Origin: Heterodontus francisci
Lineage: Eukaryota
Direction of reading: 5' to 3'
Assembly: GCF_036365525.1 (NCBI RefSeq)
Contig: NC_090380.1
Location: 72,343,757-72,407,756 of the forward strand
DNA: 64,000 bases
Shown: piece after piece, positions 493 through 58,485 of the stretch
Numbering within the stretch: the stretch's first letter is position 1
How the letters are laid out: every line of letters starts with the position of its first letter
Made by a program: the position numbers and the translations under genes
The notes under the pieces: model-generated
Seen by the model: the letters and a program-made list of their open reading frames with translations, nothing else
Told to the model about the DNA's origin: nothing
Database searches by the model: none

Positions 493-2277
493 AATTGCCT
501 CTGCTAAGGGAAGGAGGAAAGAGGAACCACATGCAAGCAAATGATGGAGCAGTCCTGTATCTAACCCCCTGCTTGATGATACTGAAGTGGAGGTGGTGCT
601 GCATGAAGTGTTTGTGACAAGAGTAGCCCTTCATGCCACTCCATAGCACCATTGCCATGGATTGGCATTGCAGTATCTCTGCAAGGAGGTGGAACCAGGT
701 TTTAGGCCACTGCTGACTGTTACTGTCACTGGGCGTGCCAGTTCTATGCTTCATGGTAGTAGCAGCAGATGGCACAGCTCTACATCTGAGATAAGTTGCC
801 CATGGTCATGCCAACTAGGTGCAACAATACTTTCAGATATTGATGGCATCCTGGCAAGAGAAGCCAATCAGGGTAAGCTGGCTGTTAATTACCATGGCAA
901 ACTTCTCGTACAATGCCACTGAAAGTGTGGCATACTTAACTGGAGCCTTTCCAATGGAAGCATCTAACATTACAATTACTCTGGAATTCACATATCAATG
1001 CTGAGACTCCAGAGGAATGGAACTTCCACCCATTTTCTGATGGCTGATTTACATTGGTGGTACAGGTGGTCTGGGGTGGAAAATCCAGGCTTGTGTCTGG
1101 TTTATTTTTTAAAATTATATTTGTATCTTTATTGGAACAAAGAACAAACATAGAAACCTGCACCCATTCTGATAATGATATTTGAGTAGATGGGAAGGAG
1201 AACCTGTTCATTTGGAAAAACGTCTTGAGTTAAAAATTCATTTCAGGCGGTGGCGCAAAACGGGCAGTATTGGATTGGTCACCCATTTTAAGGAGCTCCT
1301 GATATTCAGTTCCATTGCAGTCAATGGGATTAACAAGGAGAGTCGCACAGACACAATGGGCCAAGTGGCCTCCTGTGCTGCAACCATTCCATGATTCAAT
1401 GAATTCAAGTTTCTTCCAGTACTTTACTCATATTCACAGGAACATGGCAGATATTCTACACATGCCCACACCTTCAGTGATCTGCTAAGACCTCAGCACA
1501 TTGTCCTTTAACATCCTGCAACATGCAAATACCAGTGGGGCCCAGATTCTTAGCCACTTTCCCTCCTGTTTGCCCTGCTTATCGATGTTCCAGGAGATTA
1601 TCAGGTGAAGCCAAATGGTCGGCTGTGCATTGTGCCCAGCAGGCCCTGGACTTTGAGAATGGAGGTGGTGGAGAGAGGCTTTGTAGTGGGCTCTTTTCCC
1701 TCCAATTTTCCCACTTATCTTGGTAGGCCTCGGTTAACTGCTTCTTGGGGAGGGAATCTGCCTTTTTAAATGCCCTCTCATTTCTTTGGGTCCAGAAGCG
1801 GCAGTTGTGCTGCAGCACCGTCTAGACCTTCTTGGGTGACAGTAGTGGGCTCTGACATGCTGGTGGCAACCTCATCAAGAGCCCATGCTACAAAATGATT
1901 CCTGACCCAGGAAAATGGCCTGGGCTCATGGCGGGATTAGACTGGCGGGTAGAAGTCCCACCTAACTCTGTAAGGCAGAAAAAGGAAAATCTAGCCCTGT
2001 ATATTTCAGGATAATTTGTAAGATGTATATTCACTGAGAAAGAAAATAAATCAACAGAAAAAAGCAATACAGTTATCTAATTTTCATGATACTTAAAACA
2101 GTTTTATGAAGCCAAAATAACAAAGTGCTTCAGAATTCTTAGTTCTTTTTCAGAGCCTTTAACTGGCTATTGGATTGATGCTACATCTGCACTTCAGTTA
2201 CATAGAATTCTGTTTTGTTATCATGACATAACTCAGTTCCAGTAAATGAGCTAAAAATATTCTTAACAGCTACAAGT

Positions 2278-2657
2278 GTCAGCATTGGCTCAGTGGTAGC
2301 ACTCTGACCTCTAAGTCAGAATGTTGTAGGTTTAAGCCCACAACCCTCAGTCTACAACCCCGGCTTATACTTCAGTGTAGCCTGAGGGAGTGCTGTCTTT
2401 TGGTGGATGTAATAAATCCAATGGCACTATTTGAAAAAGAGCAGGGGAGTTCTGTCTGGTGTCCCTCAACCAACATCACTAAAACTGGTTATTTTATCTC
2501 ATTGCTGTTGCTTGCATCTTGCTATGCGCAAGTTGGCTGCAACGTTTCTCCACGTTACAACAGTGACTACACTTCAAAAATACTTCATTGGCTATAAAGT
2601 GGTTTGGGATGTCCTGCAGTTGTGAAAGGTGCTATATAAGTGCAAGTTCTTTCTTTT
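2278..2657 (+). mobile_element. tRNA-derived DeuSINE (SacSINE1-like) SINE
   Basis: tRNA-like head (tggctcagtggtagcact, A-box), central 'gcactatttgaaaaagagcaggggagttct' core, L2-like tail 'tgtgaaaggtgctatataagtgcaagttctttc'; related fragments at ~4780-4915 (+) and ~39395-39525 (-). Confidence 0.65.
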
Positions 2658-2780
2658 TGTTTATCCGTGGACCATCCATAGCTGCTGACGCCTCAAAAAA
2701 TCAAAGGAAATTTGTCACAATAAGCTAGTGCCTTTGAAGTAAATCCAAACTCTTTCTCAACAGGCAGGTGATCAATACTT

Positions 2781-2880
2781 CTGATGGAAGGTCACAGACC
2801 TGAAATGTTAACTCTGCTTCTCTCTCACAGATGCTGCCTGACATGTTGTGTGTTTCCAGCAATTTCTGTTTTTATTATTG
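2781..2880 (+). repeat. Penelope-like element terminal repeat fragment with degenerate hammerhead-like core
   Basis: ctgatggaaGGTCacaGACCtgaaatgttaactctgcttctctc...gatgctgcc; the same repeat occurs at 37436-37760 and ~28378-28470. Confidence 0.4.
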
Positions 2881-4074
2881 GTAATCAATACTAATTATTT
2901 CTATCACTGAGAATTGAAAAGGAAGTCTACTGGCTGGCTAATAAGTTATTTATTACATCAGATTCCAGACAAAGCCAATTGGAATTTTTTGTTTGGGCAG
3001 GCCACTCACTCCCTTTCCCATTGCGAAACATTATGATCAACATGCTATCAAATATTACATGTACAGGAGAGAATTTCTGTGCTACGAATGCATTATGCTT
3101 CCAGACAGAATTATAGATTTTGCAGCGTGTACACAGAGTCTCGAACTCCTTAGCAGAAAGAGCAGCTATGGCTTTCATTGTTAAAAATCCCAGTGCCCTG
3201 GCCTAGTCCAATTTAATGAAAATATATGATGTAGAGATAGTAACATGATGCAGAATGGAGCATGAGTTCATTTGTGAACTGTTTGTTTTCTTCAGTTTAA
3301 TACACAGCATCCAATAGGCATTCACACCAATACGGTATGAGGTGAGCTGTTGATAAATATTTTGAAAGCTGTCCAACAGTTTTCATCTTAATGCTTCATG
3401 TTTGCATTACTTTTGTTTCCAGATTAGATATATTCATTGTTAATCAGAACTCCCATGAAATTGCTCTTAGGAGAGCTCCGTGCCATTTGGGTTGGCTGCA
3501 TGCTTTTAACTGTCCTCTCCTTTTCACTAATGAGAAAGCCTAATTATAAATTTGATGTTGGATGGTTGTCAGCTATGGTTTACTGTATAGTGCAGTGTTA
3601 GGAAGATAGAGTCATTTTCAGGCAGCAGCTGTCATACAGCTGTTCGAAGCAATATCAAAGGCTCTTTTATCTGTTTCATTTGGAACTTGCACACTTCATT
3701 AAACAAGACAACTGCCATCAAACTGCTGCCTTTTTTAGTTATATGATGTGAAAGACCTACGGCTCGTGACCTGTCTTTTGTTAATAAAGGTGTTGTTTTG
3801 AGGGGTCATCACACAGCAGATGGGCAAGTTCATCATTGGTGCTGTTGACTTACAGCTGCCTTACTCAAGATGATCGCGTTTGTTTATACTTTCTACCATG
3901 ATAGTGTAACAGCACATAAAAAGGGTTTCTGAGGATCAGAAGTAAATGATAAGCATGTTGTGAAGTGAAACATCTCTTTATCTTTAAGTTAGAATGGCTT
4001 CTGAGTTAAGGTGTCATGAATAGTGTTGATGGTACTGCTCTAAATTACCAGTATTTCAAGTGAATATGGGTAAC

Positions 4075-29700: not shown

Positions 29701-30943
29701 CAAATGCTTTACCTTCATCTACACATCTAGTCACTTCCTCGGAAAATTCAATCGTTAGTTCGACATGATCTCCCCCTGACAAAGCCATGCAGACTATACC
29801 TGATTAATCCCTGCCTCTCCAAGCGGAGATTAATCCTGCCCCTCAGAATTTTTTCTCATATTTTCCCAACCACTGATGTTAGATTCACCGGCCTGTAATT
29901 ACCTGGTTTATCCCTACTACCCTTCTTGAATATTGGTACCACATTCGCTGTCCTCCAATCCTCTGTTACCTCTCCTTTGGCCAGAGAGGATTTGAAAATT
30001 TGTGTCAGAGCCCCTGCTATCTCCTCCCTTGCCTCACATAACAGCCTGGGATACATCTCATCTGGGCCTGGGGATTTATCCACTTTTAAGCCTGCCAAAA
30101 CAGCTAATACTTCCTCCCTTTCAATGCTAATATGTTCAAGTACATCATAATCCCCCTCCCTGATCTCTACACCTACATTGTACTTCTCCATAGTGAACAC
30201 AGATGCAAAGTAATCATTTAAAACCTCACCTATGTCCTCTGGCTCCACACACAGATTGCCACTTTGGTCCCTAATGGGCCACACTCTTTCCCTGGTTATC
30301 CTCTTGCCCTTAATATACTTATAAAATGCCTTAGGATTTTCCTTTATCTTGCTCGCCAGTGTTTTTTTATGTCCCCTCTTTGCTCTTCTAATTACTTTTT
30401 TTAGTACCCCCTACACTTTCTATACTCCTCTAGGGCCTCCACTGTTTTCAGCGCTCCGAATCTGCCATAAGCCTCCTTTTTTTCCTGATCCAATCGTCTA
30501 TATCCCCTGACATCCAAGGTTACCTGGACCTGTTGGTCCTACCCTTCACCTTAACAGGTACATGTTGGCTCTGAACTCTCACTATTTCCTCTTTGAATGA
30601 CTCCCACTGGTCTGATGTAGACTTTCCTAGAAGTAGCTGCTCCCAGTCCACTCTGGCCAGATCCTGTTTTATCATATTGAAATCAGCCTTCCCCCAATTC
30701 AGTACCTTTATTTCCGGCCCGTCTTTGTCCTTTTCCATAACTACCTTGAATCTTACAAAGTTATGGTCTCTATCCCTGAAATGCTCCCCCACTGACACTT
30801 CTACCACTTGTCCAGCTTCATTCGCTAGGATTAGGTCTAGTACTGCCCCTTCTCTTGTAGGCCTTTCTACGTCCTGGCTCAAAAAGCTCTCCTTTATGCA
30901 TTTTAAGAATTCCGCCCACTTTTAGCCTTTTACACTTAAGACT

Positions 30944-32297
30944 TCTTTGACCTCCTTGTCTTGAGAGACAATGGGTAAGTGCCTAGAGGTGGTCAATGGT
31001 TTGTGAAGCAGCGCCTGGAGTGGCTATAAAGGCCAATTCGAGAGTGACAGACTCTTCCACAGGTGCTGCAGATAAAATTGGTTGTCGGGGCTGTTACACG
31101 GTTGGCTCTCTCCTTGCGCTTCTGTCTTTTTTCCTGCCAACAGCTAAGTCTCTTCGACTCGCCACTCTTTAGCCCCGCCTTTATGGCTGTCCACCAGCTC
31201 TGGCGATCATTGGCAACTGACTCCCACGACTTGTGGCCAGTCTCATAGGACTTCATGTCACGTTTGCAGACGTCTTTAAAGCGGAGACATGGGTGGCTGA
31301 TGGGACTGATACCAGTGATGAGCTCGCTGTACAATGTTTCCTTGGGGATCCTGCCATCTTCCATGCGGTTCACATGGCCAAGCCATCTCAAGCGCCGCTG
31401 GCTCAGTAGGGTGTATATGCTGGGGATGTTGGCTGCCTCGAGGACTTCTGCGTTGGAGATACAGTCCTGCCACCTGATGCCAAGGATTCTCCGGAGGCAG
31501 CGAAGATGGAATGAATTGAGACGTCGCTCTCGGCTGACATACGTTGTCCAGGTCTCGCTGCACTTGAGCAAGATACTGAGGATACAGGCTTGATACACTC
31601 AGACTTTCGTGTTCCGTATCAGTGCGCCATTTTCCCACACTCTCTTGGCCAGTCTGGACATAGCAGCGGACGCCTTTCCCATGCGCTTGTTGATTTCTGC
31701 TTCAAGAGACAGGTTACTGGTAATAGTTGAGCCTAGGTAGGTGAACTCTTGAACCACTTCCAGAGCATGATCGCCGATCCTGATGGATGGAGCATTTCTG
31801 ACATCATGATGTTCGTTTTCTTGAGGCTGATGGTTAGGCCAAATTCGTTGCAGGCAGCCGCAATCCTGTCGATGAGTCTCTGCAGACACTCTTCTGTGTG
31901 GGATGTTAATGCAGCATTGTCAACAAAGAGGAGTTCCCTGATGAGGACCTTCCGTACTTTGGTCTTCGCTCTAAGACGGGCAAGTTTGAACAACCTGCCA
32001 TCTGATCTTGTGTGGAGGAAAATTCCTTCTTCTGAAGACTTGAATGCATGTGAAAGCAGCAGGGAGAAGAAGATCCCAAACAGTGTAGATGCGAGAACAC
32101 AGCCCTGTTTCACGCCACTCAGGATAGGAAAGGGGTCTGATGAGGCACCGCTATGCTGAATTGTGCCTTTCATATTGTCATGGAATGAAGTGATGATACT
32201 TAGTAGCTATGGTAGACATCCAATCTTTGCTAGTAGTCTGAAGAGACCATGTCTGCTGATGAGGTCAAAGGCTTTGGTGAGATTTGATGAGATTGGT
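30944..32297 (-). mobile_element. RTE LINE, 5'-truncated
   Basis: GVKQGCVLA, FTYLGS and C-terminal C2H2-like motif; flanked by an imperfect ~35-bp direct duplication of CR1-F. Confidence 0.9.
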
Positions 32298-35647: not shown

Positions 35648-36986
35648 TATCTCTTCAGACTACTAGAAAAGATCGGGTGTCCACCAAAGCTACTAAGTAT
35701 CATCACCTCATTCCATGACAATATGAAAGGCACAATTCAACATGGTGGCTCCTCATCAGAGCCCTTTCCTATCCTGAGTGGCGTGAAACAGGGCTGTGTT
35801 CTCGCACCCACACTTTTTGGGATTTTCTTCTCCCTGCTGCTTTCACATTCGTTCAAGTCCTCTGAAGAAGGAATTTCCCTCCACACAAGATCAGGGGACA
35901 GGTTGTTCAACCTTGCCCGTCTAAGAGCGAAGTCAAAAGTACGGAAAGTCCTCATCAGGGAACTCCTCTTTGCTGACGATGCTGCTTTAACATCTCACAC
36001 TGAAGAGTGGCTGCAGAGTCTCATCGACAGGTTTGCGGCTGCTTGCAATAAATTTGGCCTAACCATCAGCCTCAAAAAAACGAACATCATGGGGCAGGAC
36101 GTCAGAAATGCTCCATCCATCAATATTGGTGACCACGCTCTGGAAGTGGTTCAAGAGTTCACCTACCTAGGCTCAACTATCACCAGTAACCTGTCTCTTG
36201 ATGCAGAAATCAACAAGCGCATGGGTAAGGCTTCCACTGCTATGTCCAGACTGGCCAAGAGAGTGTGGAAAAATGGCACACTGACACGGAACACAAAAGT
36301 CCGAGTGTATCAGGCCTGTGTCCTCAGTACCTTGCTCTATGGCAGCGAGGCCTGGACAACGTATGTCAGCCAAGAGCGACGTCTCAATTCATTCCATCTT
36401 CGCTGCCTCCGGAGAATACTTAGCATCAGGTGGCAGGACCGTATCTCCAACACAGAAGTCCTCGCGGCGGCCAACATCCCCAGCTTGTACACACTACTGG
36501 GTCAGCGGCACTTGAGATGGCTTGGCCATGTGAGCCGCATGGAAGATGGCAGGATCCCCAAAGACACATTGTACAGCGAGCTCGCCACTGGTATCAGACC
36601 CACCGGCCGTCCACGTCTCCGCTTTAAAGACGTCTGCAAACGCGACATGAAATCCTGTGACATTGATCACAAGTCGTGGGAGTCAGTTGCCAGCGTTCGC
36701 CAGAGCTGGCGGGCAGCCATAAAGACAGGGCTAAAATGTGGCGCGTCGAAGAGACTTAGTAGTTGGCAGGAAAAAAGACAGAGGCGCAAGGGGAGAGCCA
36801 ACTGTGCAACAGCCCCGACAAACAAATTTCTCTGCAGCACCTGTGGAACAGCCTGTCACTCTAGAATTGGCCTTTATAGCCACTCCAGGCACTGCTTCAC
36901 AAACCACTGACCACCTCCATTGGTGGTCAATGCATTGAGACAATCCATTGTCTCTCGAGATAAGGAGGCCCAAAAGAAAAGAAGAA
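35648..36986 (+). mobile_element. RTE LINE, 5'-truncated, with open 395-aa RT C-terminal ORF (35723-36910)
   Basis: GVKQGCVLAP, LFADD, FTYLGS, RWLGHV and C-terminal zinc-finger-like motif; (gaa)n tail. Confidence 0.92.
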
Positions 36987-39852: not shown

Positions 39853-40101
39853 TGTGATGAGAAACTTTTTATGCAACATAAATGAGATGCGTGGAGTCCA
39901 GGTTGGTAAAGATCTCAGACAGATTTATTAAACAGCTAAACTATTATACAGTACTGAGCTCACTATTTACAGGATCTGCCTATTGGTGTTACAGTTACAG
40001 AGTGAGATTGGCATGTAGTCACATGACTGCATCCTGGCACGTAGCTCATTAGCATACTAAGATCTTAAAGGGAAATCACTCTTAAAGGTAATCACACAAC
40101 A
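39853..40101 (-). repeat. 3' LTR of myc-carrying element, copy 1
   Basis: 249-bp direct repeat of 42676-42914; AATAAA on the minus strand; abuts the PPT at 40102-40114. Confidence 0.9.
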
Positions 40102-40237
40102 TCCCCCTTCTTTCCAAAGATCAGTTTCATATGCTAAAAGCAAAAATGTATGAAATGAGATAACATCAAAATTATTTACACATGGATAAAGATTATGAAC
40201 TTTACCAATATAGAGGCTCAAAAGTTCATATATCATC

Positions 40238-40700
40238 TCAGTGATTTGACAACTCTTGCTCGGGGAATTTGTGTCTCATCCCTTGCTGTACTTTCTGAAA
40301 TTGCTTCCTCCCTGCATTTGGCTTCTGTTGCTCTGCCTTCAGGCTGCTAATATACTGTGTTGCTTTTCTGAAGATGACCACCTTTGCGGCCTTGGAAAGC
40401 TCTGGCACCTCATCTCGAAGAGCTAACCAACAGTTCTCCAACTCATTCCTCCTCTGCCTCTTCAGGGCATTGCGTGTCCTTCACCTCTCCTCATCCTCCG
40501 GGTCTGAGGGCTTGGGGCTCAAGGTCGAGGAATTGTTGGGGGAGGTGTATTTGGTCTCATGGTGGTACCTGTCTGTTCTGGCTTGTTGTGGTGGTTCTCT
40601 AGAGAGTAGAAGTGAAGGCGCAGCATAGTTGTGCTCTTGCTGGATTTCCAGACTGCACTGTTTGATGCTGGTCAGAGTCTGCGAGCGGGTTTCAGTCCTA
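40238..40700 (-). pseudogene. myc: Myc-family C-terminal fragment (Myc box IV + bHLH-LZ) inside the LTR element
   Basis: Translates IKQCSLEIQQEHNYAAPS...[65 protein letters not shown]...; compare c-Myc HQHNYAAP...[44 protein letters not shown]. Paralogue not resolved. Confidence 0.9.
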
Positions 40701-41936
40701 TTTCCCTTTGGCAATGCTCTCGTGGATGGTTATGATGTTGAGATCCTTACATACTGGTAGCCCTGCCACTGTTGGTCCGCTCGTGTCTACCAGGTAGAAC
40801 GTTTGTGGTTTCCATGCTGACTTGCCATAGCTGCATTGCATTGTTAGAGTGTCACTGCAAGGGATGGGTGAGCCATTGTATACAGATAATTTTGCAGTTG
40901 TTGGTTTTATCATTGTCTTCTAACGACTCCGATACATATATTTGAGGATTCATACTGGTAGAATATTTGCACTAGCGCCCATGTCAATCTTGACCTTGAG
41001 TGTATGTTTGCCAGCTTTCTTTAGGCCCTTGATGTTGATAGTGGCAAAAGCTTCCAGTTGTTTTGACTTCATCAACGTGATGTGTCAGGTTCACAATGTG
41101 GAATGCTTGTTCATCTTCTGTCTGAGAACGGCTTCTCTCTGGGTCTTGTCTCAGGTCTGTTTTGCCATGGATTTCATGTATTGGCTTGCGTTTACGCCAT
41201 TCTCTGGCACTTAACGTGTTACTGTTGCCCTGTTGTCTGTTTGTTTGCATCCGATCGTCTCTTCAGGCTGCATCTTTGGAGATAGAATTCCTGCATATGT
41301 GGGCCAGTGTCCTTTTGCACTGCACACCTTGCACAAGTCACGAAATGTAGGACAGCTTCACCGTGAGTGGGACAGAACGCACTTACCACACAGGTGGCTG
41401 CTCTTTTTGACCTGGTTATTGTTCTGATACCGTTGGCTGCACTTATTGCTTGCAGGTGCTGTTGTCCAGCTACAATGGCTTCGCATTTCCTGCCATCTTC
41501 CAGCAGTGCATGAATGCCGTGACCTTTCTTTTTCCCCCGAAAGGTCTTTCTGAAATGCTCCATTATTCGGTCTGACAGCTCAGCTTCTGAGAAATCACAT
41601 TCGTTGCTCTTACTACAGCATCTGCTGATGAACTGGTCAATTGATTCCCGTGGCTGTTGCCTGTAGGACATCAGTTCCAGGCGGTGAATTCTAAAATTCA
41701 GTCTCAATCGGAGCTGAACTTCCAGCACTTTCCATATCTTTGCAGGATCTTTCTGGTCCTGTTCAGATAATCCAGAGGTATTGATTCTGTGCAATCCTTC
41801 ATTTCCAATCAGCCTGTTTTTCTGGTTCTCTAATTACTTGGTCTGTAAAGCATAATTGCATTCTTTGTTTGAACAATGGGAACTCAGGTAGGATATCCAT
41901 GACCTTTCAGTTCATGCTGGGAAGTTTGGTATCCAT
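40700..41936 (-). pseudogene. Degenerate Gypsy-type gag + aspartic protease, copy 1
   Basis: MDTKLPSMN..LFKQRMQLCF; FRIHRLELMSYRQQPRESIDQFISRC..K..ECDF; knuckle CKVCSAKGHW; protease ID(M)GAS.NILP...YNGSPI...FYLVD. Confidence 0.8.
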
Positions 41937-42660
41937 TTTCCTGCTGTTCGGTTACTTTAAAACATGCTTTAAGACTTTGCTTTATGACTTGCTTTATACT
42001 GCTTTCCCTTTCAAGGAACTCTCGGCTGCTTTGATTGACAGCAGCAGGTGTTTAGCAGTGCTTGTCTGTTTATCTAGCTTCCAACCTCTAGTCTGGCTGT
42101 TTATGCAGCTGTGCAATAGGCACTTCAAGTGCTTTTTAAAAAAGGGTTTGTTTATACAGCCGTTCAAGAGGCAATTCTTTGTGCTTGAGTGGTTTTAATG
42201 TTTTTTAAACTGTGACTGCTGAATGGAAGTTCTTCACGCTAGAGTGATTTAATGGTTTGTTTTTAGCTTTAGCACCGAACTGCTTGAATGGAGGATTCCC
42301 ACGCTTTCATTGTTGGGCGCCTCCTGTAATGGTGGTGATCTGATCAGCCTGGGGGAGGAATCGGGTCTTCCCCACTTTTCTTCTCCTACTGAACCTTTGA
42401 AAAGAATTGATTTTTTTTCCCAAGCACTTCGCAGCTTGTTTTTCTTTAACTGGGGTTCCTATAATGACGGCACACTGACTCACCTGCTCACAGTGACTGA
42501 TTTGCAGCGTGTCATTTAGCTCTGTCTTCTACAGCTGGAGGTGAGTTTTCTTATCTTGTTTACACTGTTTGGGGCAGTGTTCCTTTTAACTTTCTTTTAG
42601 CTGTCGGTAGTTTTTAAAGCTATTTTCCTGTGTTCTTCAATCTTGGATTCTGTCTTCTCA

Positions 42661-42675
42661 CCACGGCTGCCACCA
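42661..42675 (-). promoter_or_regulatory. Primer-binding site complementary to tRNA-Leu
   Basis: TGGTGGCAGCCGTGG directly after the LTR, versus TGGTGGCAGCGGTGG expected from the vertebrate tRNA-Leu(AAG/TAG) 3' end; copy 2 has TGGTGGCAGCTGTGG (51515-51529). Confidence 0.8.
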
Positions 42676-42914
42676 TGTAATGAGAAGCTTTTTATGTTGT
42701 CTGATGCAACATAAATGAGATGCATGGAGTCCAGGTTGTTGAAGCTCTCAACAGGTTTATTAAACAGCTAAACTATTATACAGTGCAGAGCTCACTATTT
42801 ACAGGACCTGCATCTTGGTGTTACAGTTAGAGTGAGACTGGCATGTAGTCACATTAGCTCATTAGCATACTAAGATCTTAAAGGGACATCATCCTTAAAG
42901 GCAATTACACAACA
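42676..42914 (-). repeat. 5' LTR of myc-carrying element, copy 1
   Basis: Direct repeat of 39853-40101; about 19 substitutions plus 3 indels by manual alignment. Confidence 0.9.
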
Positions 42915-47822: not shown

Positions 47823-49112
47823 CCCAAGAAGCAAGCTAATCAAAGTTATCTGGAGTTTGAAAGAAATAAGCAGCTGGCTTTTGACCAGTGGCTGAGGGCT
47901 CTTAAATTACAGCTCAGCTATGAGAATCTCACGGAAGTAATTCTGTTAGAGGAATTTAAACACTCACCAAAAGCAAGACCTACTTACAATCAATGACTTT
48001 ACAGCGAGCATGAAGAACAGTAACTAAAACCATCTTCAGATAGAGTCTCAAATTTTCCACTTTATTTCTTCTGCTCTTTTTGTCTCTAGCTGCATGTGTG
48101 TATCGTGTATGCATGCTAGCTTGGGTGCGTCACGTATTCGTAGGCGTTAACCGAATTAGAGTTTATGTTCTTTTTTCTTTAAACTTAAGAAAACCTGTTT
48201 GGCTAGTTTCTTTGCCTTATAATTGGAAGTTAGGGGACGAGGATTTGCTAAGGGGGAGCTAAAAAAAGTGTGTTTAAAATTAAACCCTGTTACGGTAAGA
48301 TCAGGTGAAGGCTGAGAGGGAACCCTCGACCCCTTTCTCCTCTGGTCATAACAATGACCCAAGGGGTTTTACACAGGTTCTAACCCCTCACTGTGCTATG
48401 GCTGGTGAGGTGGATTTAAACAGTTAAATCTTTGATTTGATTGTGGCAAACAAGTATGTAACAGTAAGATTTCTGGTAAGGGGCACGGGCACCAGGAAAC
48501 ACCAAATTTCTTGGCCTCACAATGGCATGGATCAGCAACCGGCAAGGTCCTGTCATACTATATGAGGATATCCTTGATCTTCTTCTTGGAAGCTTCTTCT
48601 ACATATTTCTGGTGGTATGCCACCAAAGCTTTAGAAATGGATTGATGAACAGCATAGATTTGAGCTACATGAGCACTGCCCTTCACACAAACTCCAATGT
48701 CGACTCAAGGATCGGTGGATTTAAACAATCTTGCTGGAGGGGAAGGTGATTGGGAGAGCGCTAACTGTAGGCCCGCAGTGCTATGTAATGAGTTCTTTTC
48801 TGTTGTCTGATGCAATATAAATGAAATGCATGGAGCCCAGCTGAAGATCTCAAACAGGTTTATTTACAGCTAGCCTATCTTACAGTACAGAGCTAACTAT
48901 TTACAGAACCTTACTCTGGGTGTTACAGTTGCAGAGTAACTCTGGCTTGTAGTCACATGATTACTTATTAGCACACTAAAGGGACATCACTCTTAAAGGC
49001 AATCATACAACATCCTCCTTCTTTCCAAAGATAAGTCTCATATGCTAAAACTAAAAATACATAAAATTAGATAACACCAAAATTATTTACATAGGTATAG
49101 ATATTGTGAAAT

Positions 49113-49640
49113 TTACAAATATAGAGGCTCAAAAGTGCATATATCATTTTGGTGCTTTGACAACTTTTGCTCAGAGAATCTGCATCTCATCTGTTGCTGT
49201 TCTTTCTGAAGTTTCTCCCTCTCTGCATTCAGTTTCTGTTGCTCTGCCTTCAGCCTGCTAACATACCCTGTTGTTTTCTTAAGATAACTATTTTTGAGGC
49301 TTCCTCATTCTTGGAGAGTTCTGGCACCTCATCTCAAAGAGCCAACAGATAATACTTCAACACATTCCTCCTCTGTGTCTTTAGGACATTGTGTGTCCTT
49401 CGCCTTTACTCATCCGCCTGGTCTGAAGGCCTGGGGCTCAGGGTGAAGGACTTGTTGGGGGAGGAGTACTTGGTCTCATGGAGGTACCTGTCTGTTCTGG
49501 CTCGTTGTGGTGCTGGCGGTTCTCTCGAGAGCAGAAGTGAAGGCACGGCATAGTTCTGCTGTTGGTGGGTTTCCAGACTGCACTGTTTGATGTTGATCAG
49601 AGTCTGCGAGTGGGTTCTGGTCCTTGGAGATTTCCCCTTG
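49113..49640 (-). pseudogene. myc: Myc-family C-terminal fragment (Myc box IV + bHLH-LZ), copy 2
   Basis: IKQCSLETHQQQNYAVPS...[53 protein letters not shown](fs)TGYVSRLKAEQQKLNAEREKLQKEQQQM. Confidence 0.9.
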
Positions 49641-50799
49641 GCAATGCTCTCATGGATAGTTATGATGTTGAGGTCCTTACACGCTGGTAGTCCTGCCACC
49701 GCTGCTCCGCTCATGTCTACTAGGTAGAATACTTGTGGTTTCCATACTGACTTGCCATAGCTGCATTGCATTGTTAGAGTGTCACTGCAAGAGATGGGTG
49801 ACCCATTGTATGCAGATAACTTTGCATTTGTTGGTTGTATCATTGATTTCCAACAACTCTGGTACTTATCCTTCAGGATTCGGACTGGTAGGATATTTGC
49901 ACTAACGCCAGTGTCATTCTTGACCCTTACTGTACGTTTGCCAGTTTTCTTCGGGCACGTGATGTTAATGATAGCAAGCTTCCATCAGCGTGTATTAGCT
50001 TGCATTTCCGCAGGTCTCTGGCGCTTTCCTTGCTGCTGTTGCCCTCTGCTGCCCCTGCCTTCTGTTTGTCTGTGTCGTGCTGCAGCTTCAGGCCGTGTCT
50101 TTGGAGACAGATTTCTTGCATAGGCGGGCCCAGTGTCCTTTTGCACTGCATGCCTTGCACAGGTCACGAAATGCAGGGCAATTTTGCCATGAGTGGGACA
50201 GACCCAGACCACACTTAGCACACAGCTTGCTTGCTCATCTTGACCTGGTTATGGTGCAGATACTGTTGACTGCATCTAGTGTTTGCAGGTGCTGTTGTCC
50301 AGCTACAATGGCTTCATACTTCCTGCCATCTTCCAGCAGCACATCATTGCTGTGACCTTTCTTTTTCCCCCAAAAGGTTTATCAGAAACACTTCAGTGGG
50401 CGTCGATACAGTCACTAGCTCCATTATTCTATCTGACAACTCAGTTTCTGAGAAGTCACATTTGTTGCCCTTACTACTGCATTTACTGATGAACTGGTCT
50501 ATTCATTCCTGTGGCTGTTGCCTGTAGGACATCAATTCCAGGTGGTGATTTCTAAAATTCACTCGTTATCGGAGCTGATCTTCCTGCACTTTCCATATTT
50601 GGTCTTCGTCAGGTATTCCAGAGGTGCTGACTCTGTGTAATTTCACATTTTCAACTGCTATCAGAATTTTTACAGCCTGTTTTTCTGGTTCTGCAATCAC
50701 TTGGTTTGTAAAGCGTAACTGAATTCTTTATTTGAACAACTGGAACTCAGATGGGTTATCAATGACCTTCCAGTTCATGCTGGGAAATTTGGTATCCAT
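49640..50799 (-). pseudogene. Degenerate gag + aspartic protease, copy 2
   Basis: Collinear with copy 1; CX2CX4HX4C knuckle near 50118-50159; DTG catalytic motif. Confidence 0.8.
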
Positions 50800-51571
50800 C
50801 TTCCTGCTGTTCTTTTGCTTAAAACTTGCTGTAGGACTGGTTCTATGACTCTGCACTGTTTCCCCTTTAAAAGAACTCTCTGTTATTTAGACTAGCTGCT
50901 TTGATTGACAGAAGCAGGTGTTTACTAGTGCTGTGTGTTTATCTTGCTTCCAGCACTTAAGCCTGTTCTGTTTACATCACTGTTCAATAGGTAGCTTAAT
51001 GCATTTTTTTAGAGTTTTTTAAGGTCTTCACTCGAGAGTGGTTTTAATGTTTTTTTTCCTGTGGCTTCATGAATGGAAGCTCTTATTCACGCTTGAGTAG
51101 TTTCATGTTTTTTTAAACTTTGGCTGTGTAGATGAAGGCTGTGCCATGTTCTGGGTTTTCCCACCTTTTTTCTAATGGACGCTTCCTGTAATCGTGCTGA
51201 CCTCAATCAGCCTGGGAAAGGGGTTGGGTCTTCCCATGTTTTTTTCCTACATGGAACTTTTGAAAAAAAAAACAATCTTTTGAAGGTCTTCAAAGCTTTT
51301 TTTTAAAGCAGTATCCCTCGCTCATCCGCACAAAGACTCACCTGATTTATTCGCAACCTGCTGCTCTGTGCTCTGTCTTATACAGCTTGAGGTAAGTTCT
51401 TTTTTCAATATTTGAGCCAGTATTTTTCTTGAACTTTCTCCCTGCTGGCTATAGGAAAGGTAGTTTTCAGAGCTGTTTTAACTGTGGTTTTCAATCTCAG
51501 ACTGTGTCTTTTCACCACAGCTGCCACCATGTAATGAGTTCTTTTATGTTGTCTGATACAACGTAAATGAG

Positions 51572-52331
51572 GGCTGGAATTTTATGGCCCCCCAACGAAT
51601 GGGCTGGTGGTGGGGGGTGCCGAAAAATTGCGTGCAGCGCGGTAGGTGGGGGGAGCCATTCCCAACGCCTTCCCACCTCCACTGCAATTTTATACGTGGT
51701 GGGTGTGGCGAGAAACGGCCCGCCCACTCTGGACCAATGAAGGCCCTTATGTGGCCAATTAACTGCCACTTAAGGGCCTCCTCCCACCGCTGCTGGTATT
51801 TTACCCACAGCTGGATGGCAAAGGCCCCAAGAACCCCGCCTGATAAAACCAGGCGGCCTTCTTGTGGGCTGGGGATGGGCCCACCTGATCAGACCCCATG
51901 TGCCCCACGGGGGAGGGGGGGGGCCAGTCGCAAAGCCCCAACCGCCCCATCACACAACATTCCCCACCAAGTACCCCCCCCCCCTCCCCCGACTTTGCCT
52001 CACTGGGGCCCGGCCAATTATTCCCGGCAAGGCTCCAAAAACTTACCTGTCTTCCGGGGCCGTCCTTCACCTTCTGATGGCTGGGTGTAGTCCCAGCAGT
52101 GACCACAGCACCCGATGGCACTGCTGGGACAAAGATCTGCCGGCCGCTGATTGGCTGGCAGCCCCATTAGGCGGGACTTCCTGCCTCAAGGAGTTGGGTC
52201 CCACCCAAGACCAATTAAAGGCCTGGGGAGCAAAAAATCCCGGCATGGCTCCCCAGGCCCGGCAGAGGCGGGCTCACCACCGACTTTTCAGCTGGTGGGC
52301 AGGGTTTCCCGCCCAATGTAAAATTCCAGCC
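51572..52331 (-). mobile_element. PIF/Harbinger-like MITE inserted in the 5' LTR of copy 2
   Basis: Perfect 13-bp TIR GGCTGGAATTTTA / TAAAATTCCAGCC; 3-bp TSD GAG (51569-51571 / 52332-52334); LTR sequence resumes after it. Confidence 0.85.
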
Positions 52332-53382
52332 GAGTTGCCTGGAGTCCAGTTGGTTGAAGATCTCAAACAGGTTTATTTACAGCCAGACTATTATACAGTA
52401 CAGAGCTAACTATTTACAGAACCTTAGTCTGGGTATTACAGCTGCAGAGTGATGCTGGCTTGGAGTCACATGACCACGTCCTGGTACTTAGCTCATTAGC
52501 ATACTAAGATCTTAAAGGGACATCACTCTTAAAGGCAATCATATGACATGGTCTTCGAACTCCTTTTTAAAAAGTACCTTTTTTGTGATGGCGCCAGACA
52601 TTTTTTAAAGATTTCGTGTTAGGCCACTCATGACATTGTTATCATGATGCAAAATACCCATTCTGCACAGTGCAGCCCAATTTCAGGAAGTGATCCTGAA
52701 ACAGGCATTAGGCACTCTAGCTGCATATGCAAAAAACCCTAATGCTTATTTCTGCCTTTAGCCCTGAACACCGATATTTCAGTCTTTACCAGTGTGGTGG
52801 CCAGCTCACTTTCACCCGCCATATTGGACACTTAGGAACCAGTTTTACATCTGTAAAATGGGTGCACCCTCAACAGTTTCTAGGCCCATGAGTTGTCTAA
52901 CACAAGAAAACGTGAACATGAAAAATACATTTGGTCCATCAAGTTTGTTCCTCACTCAGAACATGTACAAATTCCGTATCTTGGGCATTAACCAGCCCAG
53001 CATATATCCCTCAAAAGTAAATCTCAAAACATAACACACAGCATTTGCATAGGCTGGTGGAATTATATTCTATATAACGCTGTGGGTGAAATTTTACAAC
53101 TTAGCGCCACTGGCGCGGTTTAGCGCATGCTGAAAAATGGTCCATGTTGCGATTGGATGTTGTGAATACCATGTCCACACTCCTATGAAGCCATGCATTA
53201 GACCATTGATCACTATTGGTCGAAAGCTGAATTGAATACATTCAGGGAGACTTTGAAGTGTATGATCTGATGATGCAAGGCTTGCATACAGAGAGCAAGC
53301 ATGTGCTTTGCTGATCATCCAAGCTTGACTGGATTCAGTGTGAAATCAAAGTTGCCATTAATCTGAAGGTTTATGAGGCAGT

Positions 53383-57127: not shown

Positions 57128-58485
57128 ATTCATTGATCTCACCAAAGCCTTTGACCTCGTCAGCAGACGTGGTCTCTTCAGACTACTAGAAAAGATCGGA
57201 TGTCCACCAAAGCTACTAAGTATCATCACTTCATTCCATGACAATATGAAAGGCACAATTCAACATGGTGGCTCCTCATCAGAGCCCTTTCCTATCCTGA
57301 GTGGCGTGAAACATGGCTGTGTTCTCGCACCCACACTTTTTGGGATTTTCTTCTCCCTGCTGCTTTCACATGCGTTCAAGTCCTCTGAAGAAGGAATTTC
57401 CCTCCACGCAAGATCAGGGGGCAGGTTGTTCAACCTTGCCCGTCTAAGAGCGAAGTCCAAAATACGGAAAGTCCTCATCAGGGAACTCCTCTTTGCTGAC
57501 GATGCTGCTTTAACATCTCACACTGAAGAGTGCCTGCAGGGTCTCATCGACAGGTTTGCGGCTGCCTGCAATGAATTTGGCCTAACCATCAGCCTCAAGA
57601 AAATGAACATCATGGGGCAGGACGTCAGAAATGTTCCATCCATCAATATTGGCGACCACGCTCTGGAAGTGGTTCAAGAGTTCACCTACCTAGGCTCAAC
57701 TATCACCAGTAACCTGTCTCTAGATGCAGAAATCAACAAGCGCATGGGAAAGGCTTCCACTGCTATGTCCAGACTGGCCAAGAGAGTGTGGGAAAATGGC
57801 ACACTGACACGGAACACAAAAGTCCGAGTGTATCAGGCCTGTGTCCTCAGTACCTTGCTCTATGGCAGCGAGGCCTGGACAACGTATGCCAGCCAAGAGC
57901 GACGTCTCAATTCATTCCATCTTCGCTGCCTCCGGAGAATCCTTGGCATCAGGTGGCAGGACCGTATCTCCAACACAGAAGTCCTCGAGGCGGCCAACAT
58001 CCCCAGCTTGTACACACTACTGAGTCAGCGGCACTTGAGATGGCTTGGCCATGTGAGCCGCATGGAAGATGGCAGGATCCCCAAAGACACATTGTACAGC
58101 GAGCTCGCCACTGGTATCAGACCCACCGGCCGTCCACGTCTCCGCTTTAAAGACGTCTGCAAACGCGACATGAAATCCTGTGACATTGATCACAAGTCGT
58201 GGGAGTCAGTTGCCAGCGTTCGCCAGAGCTGGCGGGCAGCCATAAAGACAGGGATAAAATGTGGCGAGTCGAAGAGACTTAGTAGTTGGCAGGAAAAAAG
58301 ACAGAGGCGCAAGGGGAGAGCCAACTGTGCAACAGCCCCGACAAACAAATTTCTCTGCAGCACCTGTGGAAGAGCCTGTCACTCTAGAATTGGCCTTTAT
58401 AGCCACTCCAGGCGCTGCTTCACAAACCACTGACCACCTCCAGGCGCGTATCCATTGTGTCTCAATATAACGAGGCCCAAAAGAA
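57128..58485 (+). mobile_element. RTE LINE, 5'-truncated, with open 395-aa ORF (57246-58433)
   Basis: Near-identical to 35648-36986; starts at the FIDLTKAFD motif. Confidence 0.92.

Follow-up and report, generated by a model that had tools for sequence, protein, structure and literature searches.

The element at positions 48784-52548 of the window—the whole analysed stretch of 64,000 nucleotides from Heterodontus francisci—is a non-autonomous LTR retrotransposon of the Ty3/Gypsy type that carries, fused to its Gag-protease frame, a piece of the host gene mych, the fourth vertebrate Myc paralogue. Its structural history, i.e. an autonomous parent, the capture of spliced mych sequence, a nested shortening and a subsequent spread, can be regarded as practically certain, and the derivative has spread to about 2,000-3,000 sites. 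Two copies, both of the shortest form, lie in the window and are composed as follows (the element under study being copy 2):

39853-42914, minus strand: copy 1, of the same shortest form as copy 2; Myc segment at 40266-40718; TSD matching at 4/5 bases.
48784-52548, minus strand: copy 2, whole element, a separate insertion.
48779-48783, no strand: left half of the copy 2 TSD (5 bp), 3/5 bases being equal to those at 52549-52553.
52549-52553, no strand: right half of the copy 2 TSD.
48784-49012, minus strand: 3' LTR of copy 2, with TG...CA ends.
49013-49026, minus strand: polypurine tract, adjoining the 3' LTR on its 5' side, at the same place in Myc-bearing and parent copies.
49027-49176, minus strand: remnant of the parent integrase C-terminal tail and 3' untranslated part, cut down by the "short tail" deletion.
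49177-49648, minus strand: captured mych exon-3 segment (host codons ~201-358), with two stops and a 1-bp deletion.
49649-49990, minus strand: putative aspartic protease region (D-T-G motif at 49915-49907), sharing its frame with the Myc segment (open reading frame 49406-49984).
49991-50799, minus strand: decayed gag, probably a capsid-like part and Cys/His knuckles, in the reading phase of the protease family-wide.
51513-51529, minus strand: primer-binding site, presumably of the tRNA-Leu type, adjoining the 5' LTR.
51530-52548, minus strand: 5' LTR of copy 2, interrupted, its two pieces being 51530-51571 and 52332-52548; contigs of other copies run on across the gap.
51572-52331, no strand: 760-bp GC-rich element bounded by terminal inverted repeats and flanked by a 3-bp target duplication, a later insert foreign to the retrotransposon.

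The Myc segment of copy 2 covers an NLS-like motif, the basic region, the HLH and the leucine zipper, and its equivalent in copy 1 scores with PF00010. The gag and protease stretches gave no Pfam hit at E≤0.1, and the name of the protease therefore rests on the D-T-G motif and the position before the RT in parent copies; the gag domains are likewise named, tentatively, from motif and position. The 760-bp element with inverted ends, which splits the 5' LTR of copy 2, had escaped the sequence-only reading of this DNA.

That reading had proposed copy 2 to be a second, independent insertion with unrelated flanks, and BLAST of the 1-kb flanks on both sides gave no hit between the two copies; since the flanks do not align, a segmental duplication of the window copies is ruled out. 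It was equally right about the boundaries and architecture of copy 2, the protease/Myc junction common to both copies, the weak TSD, the lesions of copy 2 (two stops, at host codons 281 and 305, and the loss of 1 bp at codon 326) and the substantial divergence between the copies, their alignment identity being 81% over protease-Myc-3' LTR and dropping to 71% in gag and the 5' part. As to copy 1, the stop in the basic region stands (host codon 283, a CGA codon), whereas the 5-bp deletion, previously placed at the junction, lies ~25 bp inside the Myc part, at host codon 209; in-frame deletions of 6 bp and 9 bp are also present. The LTR-LTR divergence of copy 1, read as about 9%, was measured as a K2P of 0.083 (230 sites), that of copy 2 as 0.104 (187 sites).

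Concerning the donor, the Myc segment of copy 2 is 89% identical over 474 bp to the host mych (G000:C16)—matching P0001 at 100% in two exons—and gives only short DNA hits to the other two Myc paralogues compared, c-Myc and N-Myc (no L-myc gene having been identified). The element proteins cluster with the host mych with a bootstrap of 97. The donor is thus mych; c-myc and N-myc are ruled out by both the DNA identity and the tree. In longer copies, at 22 loci, exon 2 is joined exactly to exon 3, the 1.7-kb intron being absent, and it was therefore a spliced mRNA that was captured. The captured piece corresponds to host codons ~123-359, the commonest form beginning at codon ~201; because the capture begins at codon ~123, past the N-terminal part of exon 2, the N-terminal transactivation region is missing.

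The parent is an element of ~5.3 kb with a single gag-pol frame, in which the order is protease, RT and integrase; its copies carry PF00078 (RT) as well as PF17921 and PF00665 (integrase, 3' end), and 27 of 30 loci found by the integrase tail are without Myc. LTRs with TG...CA ends, a PBS, a PPT and a short TSD are all present, and no env was seen in the element. RNase H is annotated in all the close relatives listed. Among solved structures, the best hits of the parent RT include that of Ty3 (E 3e-21), ahead of entries whose titles we take to denote spumaviral (8e-18) and gammaretroviral (1e-6) enzymes. The named relatives are "K02A2.6-like" and "Gypsy retrotransposon integrase-like", and the family presumably belongs to the Mag/SURL clade within Ty3/Gypsy.

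The mych piece replaces the parent from the RT through the integrase core, presumably with the RNase H in between, in frame at both ends, with microhomologies of 7 nt and 6 nt in the same codon phase. The protease/Myc junction of the two window copies does not mark the capture itself; it is a later deletion within a nested series of forms shortening from 3.8 to 3.1 kb, the 3' form of the copies having been assigned by reading the junction contexts. The frame survives at five of the six recurrent junctions (p = 0.018 against a chance of one in three), among them all three lying upstream of the bHLH; every recurrent deletion leaves untouched the 474 bp encoding NLS-bHLH-zipper, and the gag-protease-linker keeps one open phase over 56 aligned copies. 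The element is an LTR-mediated retrocopy, its intron removed, an internal ORF replaced, microhomology present at both ends and poly(A) absent, and it has been re-transposed.

It had also been claimed that the element was mobile as a genome-wide family with many myc-like copies, and that capture preceded amplification with the ancestral Myc frame open; both are borne out, the latter by the matching codon phase of the junctions and the one open phase family-wide. The copy count suggested there as a check yielded 1,126 and 679 junction matches (controls 0 and 3), hence at least 1,805 Myc-bearing copies, the 679 being exon 2/exon 3 splice-junction matches, a pattern that the host mych gene does not match; 2,872 candidates had been seen at first look. 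The "short tail" deletion junction has 1,351 matches genome-wide. The parent family sharing the LTRs, with RT and integrase, counts at least 1,228 copies (control 0), so that the Myc-bearing family is at least as large as its autonomous parent. From the counts, a density of ~1 copy per 2-3 Mb follows arithmetically, and two copies 6 kb apart are unremarkable in themselves. The TSD of the family is 5 bp: 14 of 29 full-length copies match at 4-5/5 bases versus 2.2% of mismatched pairs, a conservative figure because the automatic LTR-end finder misplaced the ends in some copies, including copy 1. LTR-pair dating—another check suggested—gave a median divergence of 0.11-0.12, and every copy sampled is old and broken: an open polyprotein frame (a stop-free stretch of ≥400 codons) was found in none of 82 sampled Myc-bearing regions, and the exon-3 part is without stop or frameshift in 3 of 111 copies, these samples covering ~4-6% of copies. 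A shark mutation rate of 7e-10 per generation has been published (PMC10587355). In a DNA run from another organism, the right flank of copy 2 was barely covered and no contig ran across the site.

Selection was examined in 40 copies picked by junction alone, the Myc result of the first sample having been set aside because its copies were the best matches to copy 2; the unbiased copies comprise 1.2 kb each, the early forms being thinly sampled. Between the earliest and latest Myc forms, the net dN/dS is 0.33 for gag-protease (bootstrap 0.19-0.52) and 0.69 for the Myc segment (bootstrap 0.23-3.76), which suggests purifying selection on gag-protease but not on the Myc part. The E-box is read in MYC by His359, Glu363 and Arg367 (PMC10437117). 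Of the corresponding residues, the Glu was lost early, while the lineage was still spreading: it is gone in 0.50, 1.00, 1.00 and 0.97 of copies across the four forms, 6 of the 12 earliest-form copies still having it. The His is lost in 0.33-0.80 of copies across forms, and in the unbiased set of the commonest form the Glu is changed in 36/36, the His in 28/36 and the Arg in 2/37. In the three later forms, 97-100% of copies have the Glu changed, so that an open frame was not the same thing as a working Myc. With neither an N-terminal transactivation region nor an intact His/Glu/Arg triad, the segment does not qualify as a functional or v-Myc-like Myc. The NLS lysine is lost in 0.25-0.98 of copies across forms, and its change in 98% of the commonest form weakens a nuclear-import role for the cargo. 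The HLH-zipper, the predicted Max dimerisation region, is largely kept in sequence, with only three inherited changes (codons 331, 350 and 354); at non-CpG codons this is 3/58 versus 9/81 upstream (Fisher p = 0.36).

Based on the above results, the capture would have been a double template switch during reverse transcription of co-packaged mych mRNA, in the germ line or early embryo (in zebrafish, mych mRNA is maternal; PMC2323570), with RT and integrase supplied in trans by the parent. The derivative may have succeeded by being short and by keeping one open Gag-protease fusion frame in cis, as does the mouse IAP 1Delta1, the Myc segment being mainly an in-frame passenger whose DNA-reading and NLS residues were lost while the lineage multiplied. 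The explanation that we favour, with moderate confidence, is one in which the open Gag fusion was what propelled the spread, with Myc carried along. It has to accommodate the 474 bp spared by all recurrent deletions, the few inherited HLH-zipper changes (although the difference is not significant) and a Myc dN/dS interval wide enough to allow constraint. Moreover, recombination with autonomous helpers, and not selection in cis, may account for the gag-protease signal—in the gag tree, copies of the early form are intermingled with those of the parent, although this is modestly supported—and the in-frame joins follow partly from the microhomologies in matching codon phase.

It is possible, albeit rather unlikely, that the Myc segment was instead a working cargo: an HLH-zipper without transactivation boxes, protease-released or Gag-carried, that would bind Max in germ cells or embryos as a sponge, could not read E-boxes once the basic-region residues had gone, and would lift Max-dependent repression or shift the cell state to the benefit of the element. 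The link from Max to silencing that this draws on is a presumed one. The proportion of recurrent junctions in frame, the HLH-zipper kept in all forms, the loss concentrated on the E-box-reading His/Glu positions, the junction counts exceeding those of the parent (1,805 vs 1,228) and contigs crossing the protease/Myc junction in runs presumed to be RNA are all consistent with it; the lack of significant constraint on the Myc segment, in dN/dS as well as in the Fisher test, and the NLS lysine gone from nearly all copies of the commonest form argue against it. As for the counts, non-autonomous short elements generally often outnumber their parents without any cargo. The available part of PMC6466679 describes the same for new IAP insertions. 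A shade more doubtful is the fuller version, in which the element would have used the Myc dimerisation domain as a tool, a protease-cut HLH-zipper stripped of DNA reading and soaking up germ-line Max, so that the family outgrew its parent; if true, v-myc transduction would have a dominant-negative counterpart in the germ line.

Quite improbable is a scenario in which the earliest form, with its basic region intact, bound DNA to control its own LTR or sent a growth signal like that of v-Myc, the later forms merely coasting. Half of the earliest-form copies do keep the Glu, and at one LTR position the E-box-like CATGTG outnumbers every other hexamer in all Myc-bearing groups, but the transactivation region is missing and the biggest expansions came after the loss of the Glu. 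The hexamer predates the capture because it already ranks first in parent LTRs (16 sites), and a post-capture feedback site in the LTR is thus ruled out. Finally, that the window copies arose by segmental or tandem duplication, or are LINE-made processed pseudogenes landed in LTR elements, has next to no probability: a few copies elsewhere do appear to have been duplicated once inserted (L209 and L210 have both stops in common), but the window flanks are unalignable and the copies carry their own 5-bp TSDs, the same junctions recur at hundreds of loci on many contigs, and the captured piece stops short of the mych stop codon, lacks both 3' UTR and poly(A), and stands in place of parent sequence.

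Among known systems, avian MC29-type gag-myc retroviruses are defective, a spliced myc fused to gag replacing replication genes so that a helper is needed; they are exogenous and somatic, carry a near-complete c-myc and transform cells. The shark element differs in being a germ-line retrotransposon with only the C-terminal part of mych and its E-box-reading residue lost; lying outside the retroviruses, it parallels gag-myc transduction in the germ line. In LTR-mediated retrocopies, as far as the available text of Tan et al. 2016 (PMC5131818) goes, an mRNA piece replaces part of an internal ORF with a median microsimilarity of 6 bp; the shark element resembles them in being partial and intronless, with microsimilarity at both switch points and non-autonomous re-transposition. 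According to the same text, multiple insertion sites were found for two Drosophila retrocopies, whereas the single shark capture gave thousands of copies, kept its Gag-protease frame through the subfamilies and has a Myc-family cargo. The available part of PMC4299795 reports CrocERV29 (KIT-ligand) and CrocERV31 (nectin3) in 9 and 6 copies, common to related crocodilian species and with cargo under purifying selection. In these too, a vertebrate LTR element took up a host mRNA, became fixed in the germ line and was amplified; as described there, however, they are retroviruses in which the cargo forms an ORF of its own, next to env or in its place, whereas the shark element is Ty3/Gypsy with the cargo inside gag-pol, has hundreds of times more copies, and constraint on its cargo is not demonstrated. 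IAP 1Delta1, in the portion of PMC6466679 at hand, is likewise a non-autonomous internal-deletion form with an in-frame Gag fusion, which helps retrotransposition in cis; it fuses gag to its own pol remnant, whereas the shark fusion partner is host-derived and the cis effect is only inferred.

The capture route is thus already known, the comparison cases in the available parts of PMC5131818 and PMC4299795 reaching a handful of copies; a literature search found no description of this Myc-bearing family. Here, a Myc segment joined in frame to Gag gave rise to a family thousands strong, whose fossils line up in an ordered series—the capture, four rounds of trimming and a stepwise loss of DNA-reading residues—which allows a direct test of whether captured host genes aid the spread of retroelements or ride along. 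Contigs from sequencing runs presumed to be RNA span the protease/Myc junction, carrying neither strand nor level, and read depth over the Myc part also takes in the host mych. It should be pointed out that mych read counts and Myc family sizes will come out too high because of element copies; the expected confusion of myc annotation is real, at least six Heterodontus francisci database proteins named myc- or N-myc-like being copies of the element.

The genome of Heterodontus francisci that contains the window (G000:C10:72343757-72407756) comprises 6.01 Gb, the window itself harbouring two LTR elements with a Myc segment:

39853-42914, minus strand, copy 1, LTR element with Myc segment
48784-52548, minus strand, copy 2, LTR element with Myc segment

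In both, LTRs 230-260 bp long with TG...CA ends enclose a primer-binding site (PBS), a polypurine tract (PPT), a degraded gag-protease region and a bHLH-zipper segment of the Myc type; in copy 1 this segment matches PF00010 (E 1.7e-6). The sequence-only reading had taken their flanks to be unrelated, and the 1-kb flanks indeed do not align to each other; the target site duplication (TSD) is, as it stated, weak in copy 2 (3/5 bases agree; 4/5 in copy 1). Every lesion it named in the two copies has been found, but the 5-bp deletion of copy 1 is located ~25 bp within the Myc part and not at the junction. The basic-region glutamate is absent from both copies, and the LTR-pair K2P distances are 0.083 (copy 1) and 0.104 (copy 2). 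A later GC-rich insertion of 760 bp—presumably a Harbinger-type MITE—interrupts the 5' LTR of copy 2 at 51572-52331; it has terminal inverted repeats, a 3-bp target duplication and relatives at other loci. Another repeat, of 1.3 kb, is present three times in the window (30943-32283, 35650-36978 and 57136-58485; 90-96% identical), and two of the three copies contain an ORF (446 and 434 codons); the repeat family is much younger than the Myc element.

The Myc-bearing family is real and large. The Myc segment of copy 2, used as a genome query, retrieved 2,872 first-look candidates, all 40 of those scored matching it at 86-89% identity (the query itself excepted), and element LTR sequence adjoins the Myc part in 29 of 30 fetched loci, the exception being the host gene. 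Genome-wide pattern counts, allowing up to 3 mismatches, gave 1,126 matches to the window-type protease/Myc junction (control 0), 679 to the exon 2/exon 3 splice junction confined to the longer forms (control 3) and 1,351 to the junction of Myc with the short tail (control 0). Since the first two sets are disjoint, there are at least 1,805 Myc-bearing copies, in line with the many myc-like copies predicted earlier; the three patterns recovered 16/20, 26/29 and 17/40 known copies, and the total is thus near 2,000-3,000. A 5-bp TSD agreeing at 4-5 positions accompanies 14 of the 29 full-length copies with scorable ends (mismatched pairs 2.2%). It should be noted that some copies appear to have been multiplied by segmental duplication after insertion, as seen from two loci (C2:163.68 Mb and C2:163.83 Mb; L209 and L210) with both stops in common and from a cluster of four exact splice-junction matches at C40:1.27-2.67 Mb.

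Concerning the origin of the segment, its top protein match is P0001 from H. francisci ('myelocytomatosis oncogene homolog'), which matches contig C16 at 100% over two exons:

G000:C16:100016366-100019168, host mych gene (L051), two coding exons matched, 1.7-kb intron

This gene, mych, is the donor. The c-myc gene is on C5 (179.85 Mb) and N-myc on C3 (66.19 Mb), and L-myc did not turn up in the 118 matches of the genome search for myc genes, where element copies crowd the list. In the evolutionary tree, host mych and six element-derived proteins form a cluster (bootstrap 97) from which the mych of four other galeomorph sharks is separate, so that the capture postdates that split. In 22 loci exon 2 runs at its 3' end directly and precisely into exon 3, the 1.7-kb intron being gone, which indicates that a spliced RNA was the template; the captured segment lacks the stop codon of mych, its 3' UTR and the poly(A). 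By analogy, the maternal mych mRNA reported in zebrafish (PMC2323570) would fit a germ-line encounter between element and mych.

The tail of the longest form, used as a query, led to 30 loci, 27 of them without Myc, representing a parent element near 5.3 kb with reverse transcriptase (RT; PF00078), integrase (PF17921, PF00665) and the LTR, PBS and PPT of the Myc-bearing element; its junction pattern has 1,228 genome matches. Of the solved structures, Ty3 is the one nearest to the parent RT, which is also closest to 'K02A2.6-like'/Gypsy proteins. The 5' switch into mych lies just upstream of RT, at mych codon ~123, within 7 nt common to parent and mych, and the 3' switch in the integrase tail, at codon 358-359, within 6 common nt, the codon phases agreeing at both—an anatomy like that described for template-switch retroposition (PMC5131818). 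In one parent copy (L058), which carries no Myc, a large internal deletion extends from RT into integrase, so deletion forms without Myc exist. Among the 120 listed relatives of the parent RT (L083:1480-2400), most of them unnamed, the best named ones come from echinoderms (sea urchins and starfish, at 55-60% identity), teleost elements rank below (about 50-52%) and no shark name occurs; only as a hint, sequence similarity may possibly point to horizontal transfer of the parent from a marine invertebrate.

The junction contexts order the Myc-bearing forms into a nested series: a full integrase tail, a tail shortened in frame, a tail reduced to a short frame-shifted end, loss of the pre-RT linker by an in-frame deletion and, finally, one more in-frame deletion that brings protease directly against exon 3, giving the commonest form, that of the window. 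The protease/Myc junction noted in the sequence-only reading is therefore present in the window's copies as a secondary deletion, not as the capture junction. The frame is kept at 5/6 recurrent junctions (p = 0.018 if one in three), in part explained by in-phase microhomology, the sixth being located 3' of the zipper with a stop ~20 codons on. Across 56 aligned copies, one phase runs from the gag start through the linker without a majority stop.

The median LTR-pair K2P is almost equal for 16 short-list copies (0.113), 10 long-list copies (0.117) and 9 parent copies (0.118), parent and derivative having thus been active in the same period. Contigs under two other organism labels contain the family and its junctions—X5 (organism B) crossing the protease/Myc junction gap-free (49557-49841) and X9 (organism C) the Myc/short-tail junction (49017-49208), with ~31 letters on the Myc side—and the family is accordingly older than their split. 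The exon-3 part lacks stops and frameshifts in only 2/52 copies of a first set and 1/49 well-covered copies of a second (59/60 had a match), and no stop-free stretch of at least 400 codons occurs in 82 Myc-bearing regions. Recurrent stops on three CGA codons (283, 249, 305) are scattered across all forms, none common to all, as expected from independent CpG decay.

With regard to function, dN/dS values from pairwise counts at non-CpG codons were 0.70-0.94 within groups; net between the earliest and latest forms, gag-protease gave 0.33 (0.19-0.52) and the Myc segment 0.69 (0.23-3.76). The gag-protease signal is ambiguous, because in the gag tree early-form copies interleave with parent copies and one parent copy falls in the latest form, suggesting exchange with helpers. 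Inherited changes, scored in four groups of 12, 7, 20 and 61 copies, build up in order: with a per-codon background of about 0.10, the fractions of scored copies changed are, respectively, 0.50, 1.00, 1.00 and 0.97 for Glu 290 of the basic region, 0.33, 0.80, 0.76 and 0.74 for His 286, and 0.25, 0.43, 0.78 and 0.98 for Lys 248 of the NLS. His 286 and Glu 290 align with His359 and Glu363 of MYC, reported to read the E-box (PMC10437117). Of the 58 HLH-zipper codons, 3 show inherited changes, vs 9 of 81 in the upstream part (p = 0.36). Taken together, the frame stayed open in this lineage and the dimerisation surface nearly intact, while DNA reading was lost. We consider it rather probable that the Myc segment would be a passenger in a cis-acting Gag fusion, by analogy with that of IAP 1Delta1 (PMC6466679). 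The same combination also fits a Max sponge, which we regard as unlikely. Feedback on the element's own LTR finds little room, its E-box-like hexamer being already present in the parent LTR.

The mechanism of capture is already known. The gag-myc of MC29 offers a comparison for the shark gag-Myc element. Host genes have also been captured by crocodilian ERVs, KIT-ligand and nectin3 reportedly in 9 and 6 copies (PMC4299795), in contrast to the shark family near 2,000-3,000. New here are the cargo, its fusion in frame to Gag-protease, the scale and a series of forms that can still be read. The titles and abstract openings surveyed, with subscription papers thinly covered, do not describe the family, which the supplements of a preprint on animal TE annotation naming H. 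francisci (10.64898/2026.07.01.735963) may hold unnamed.

The anticipated confounding of myc annotation does occur: six H. francisci protein models (P0002, P0004, P0008, P0014, P0015 and P0017), named 'myc proto-oncogene protein-like' or 'N-myc proto-oncogene protein-like', hold element protease, linker or integrase-tail sequence and group with mych. Among the best 120 of 355 protein matches, no such named element copies come from other species, the other sharks and rays having one mych each.
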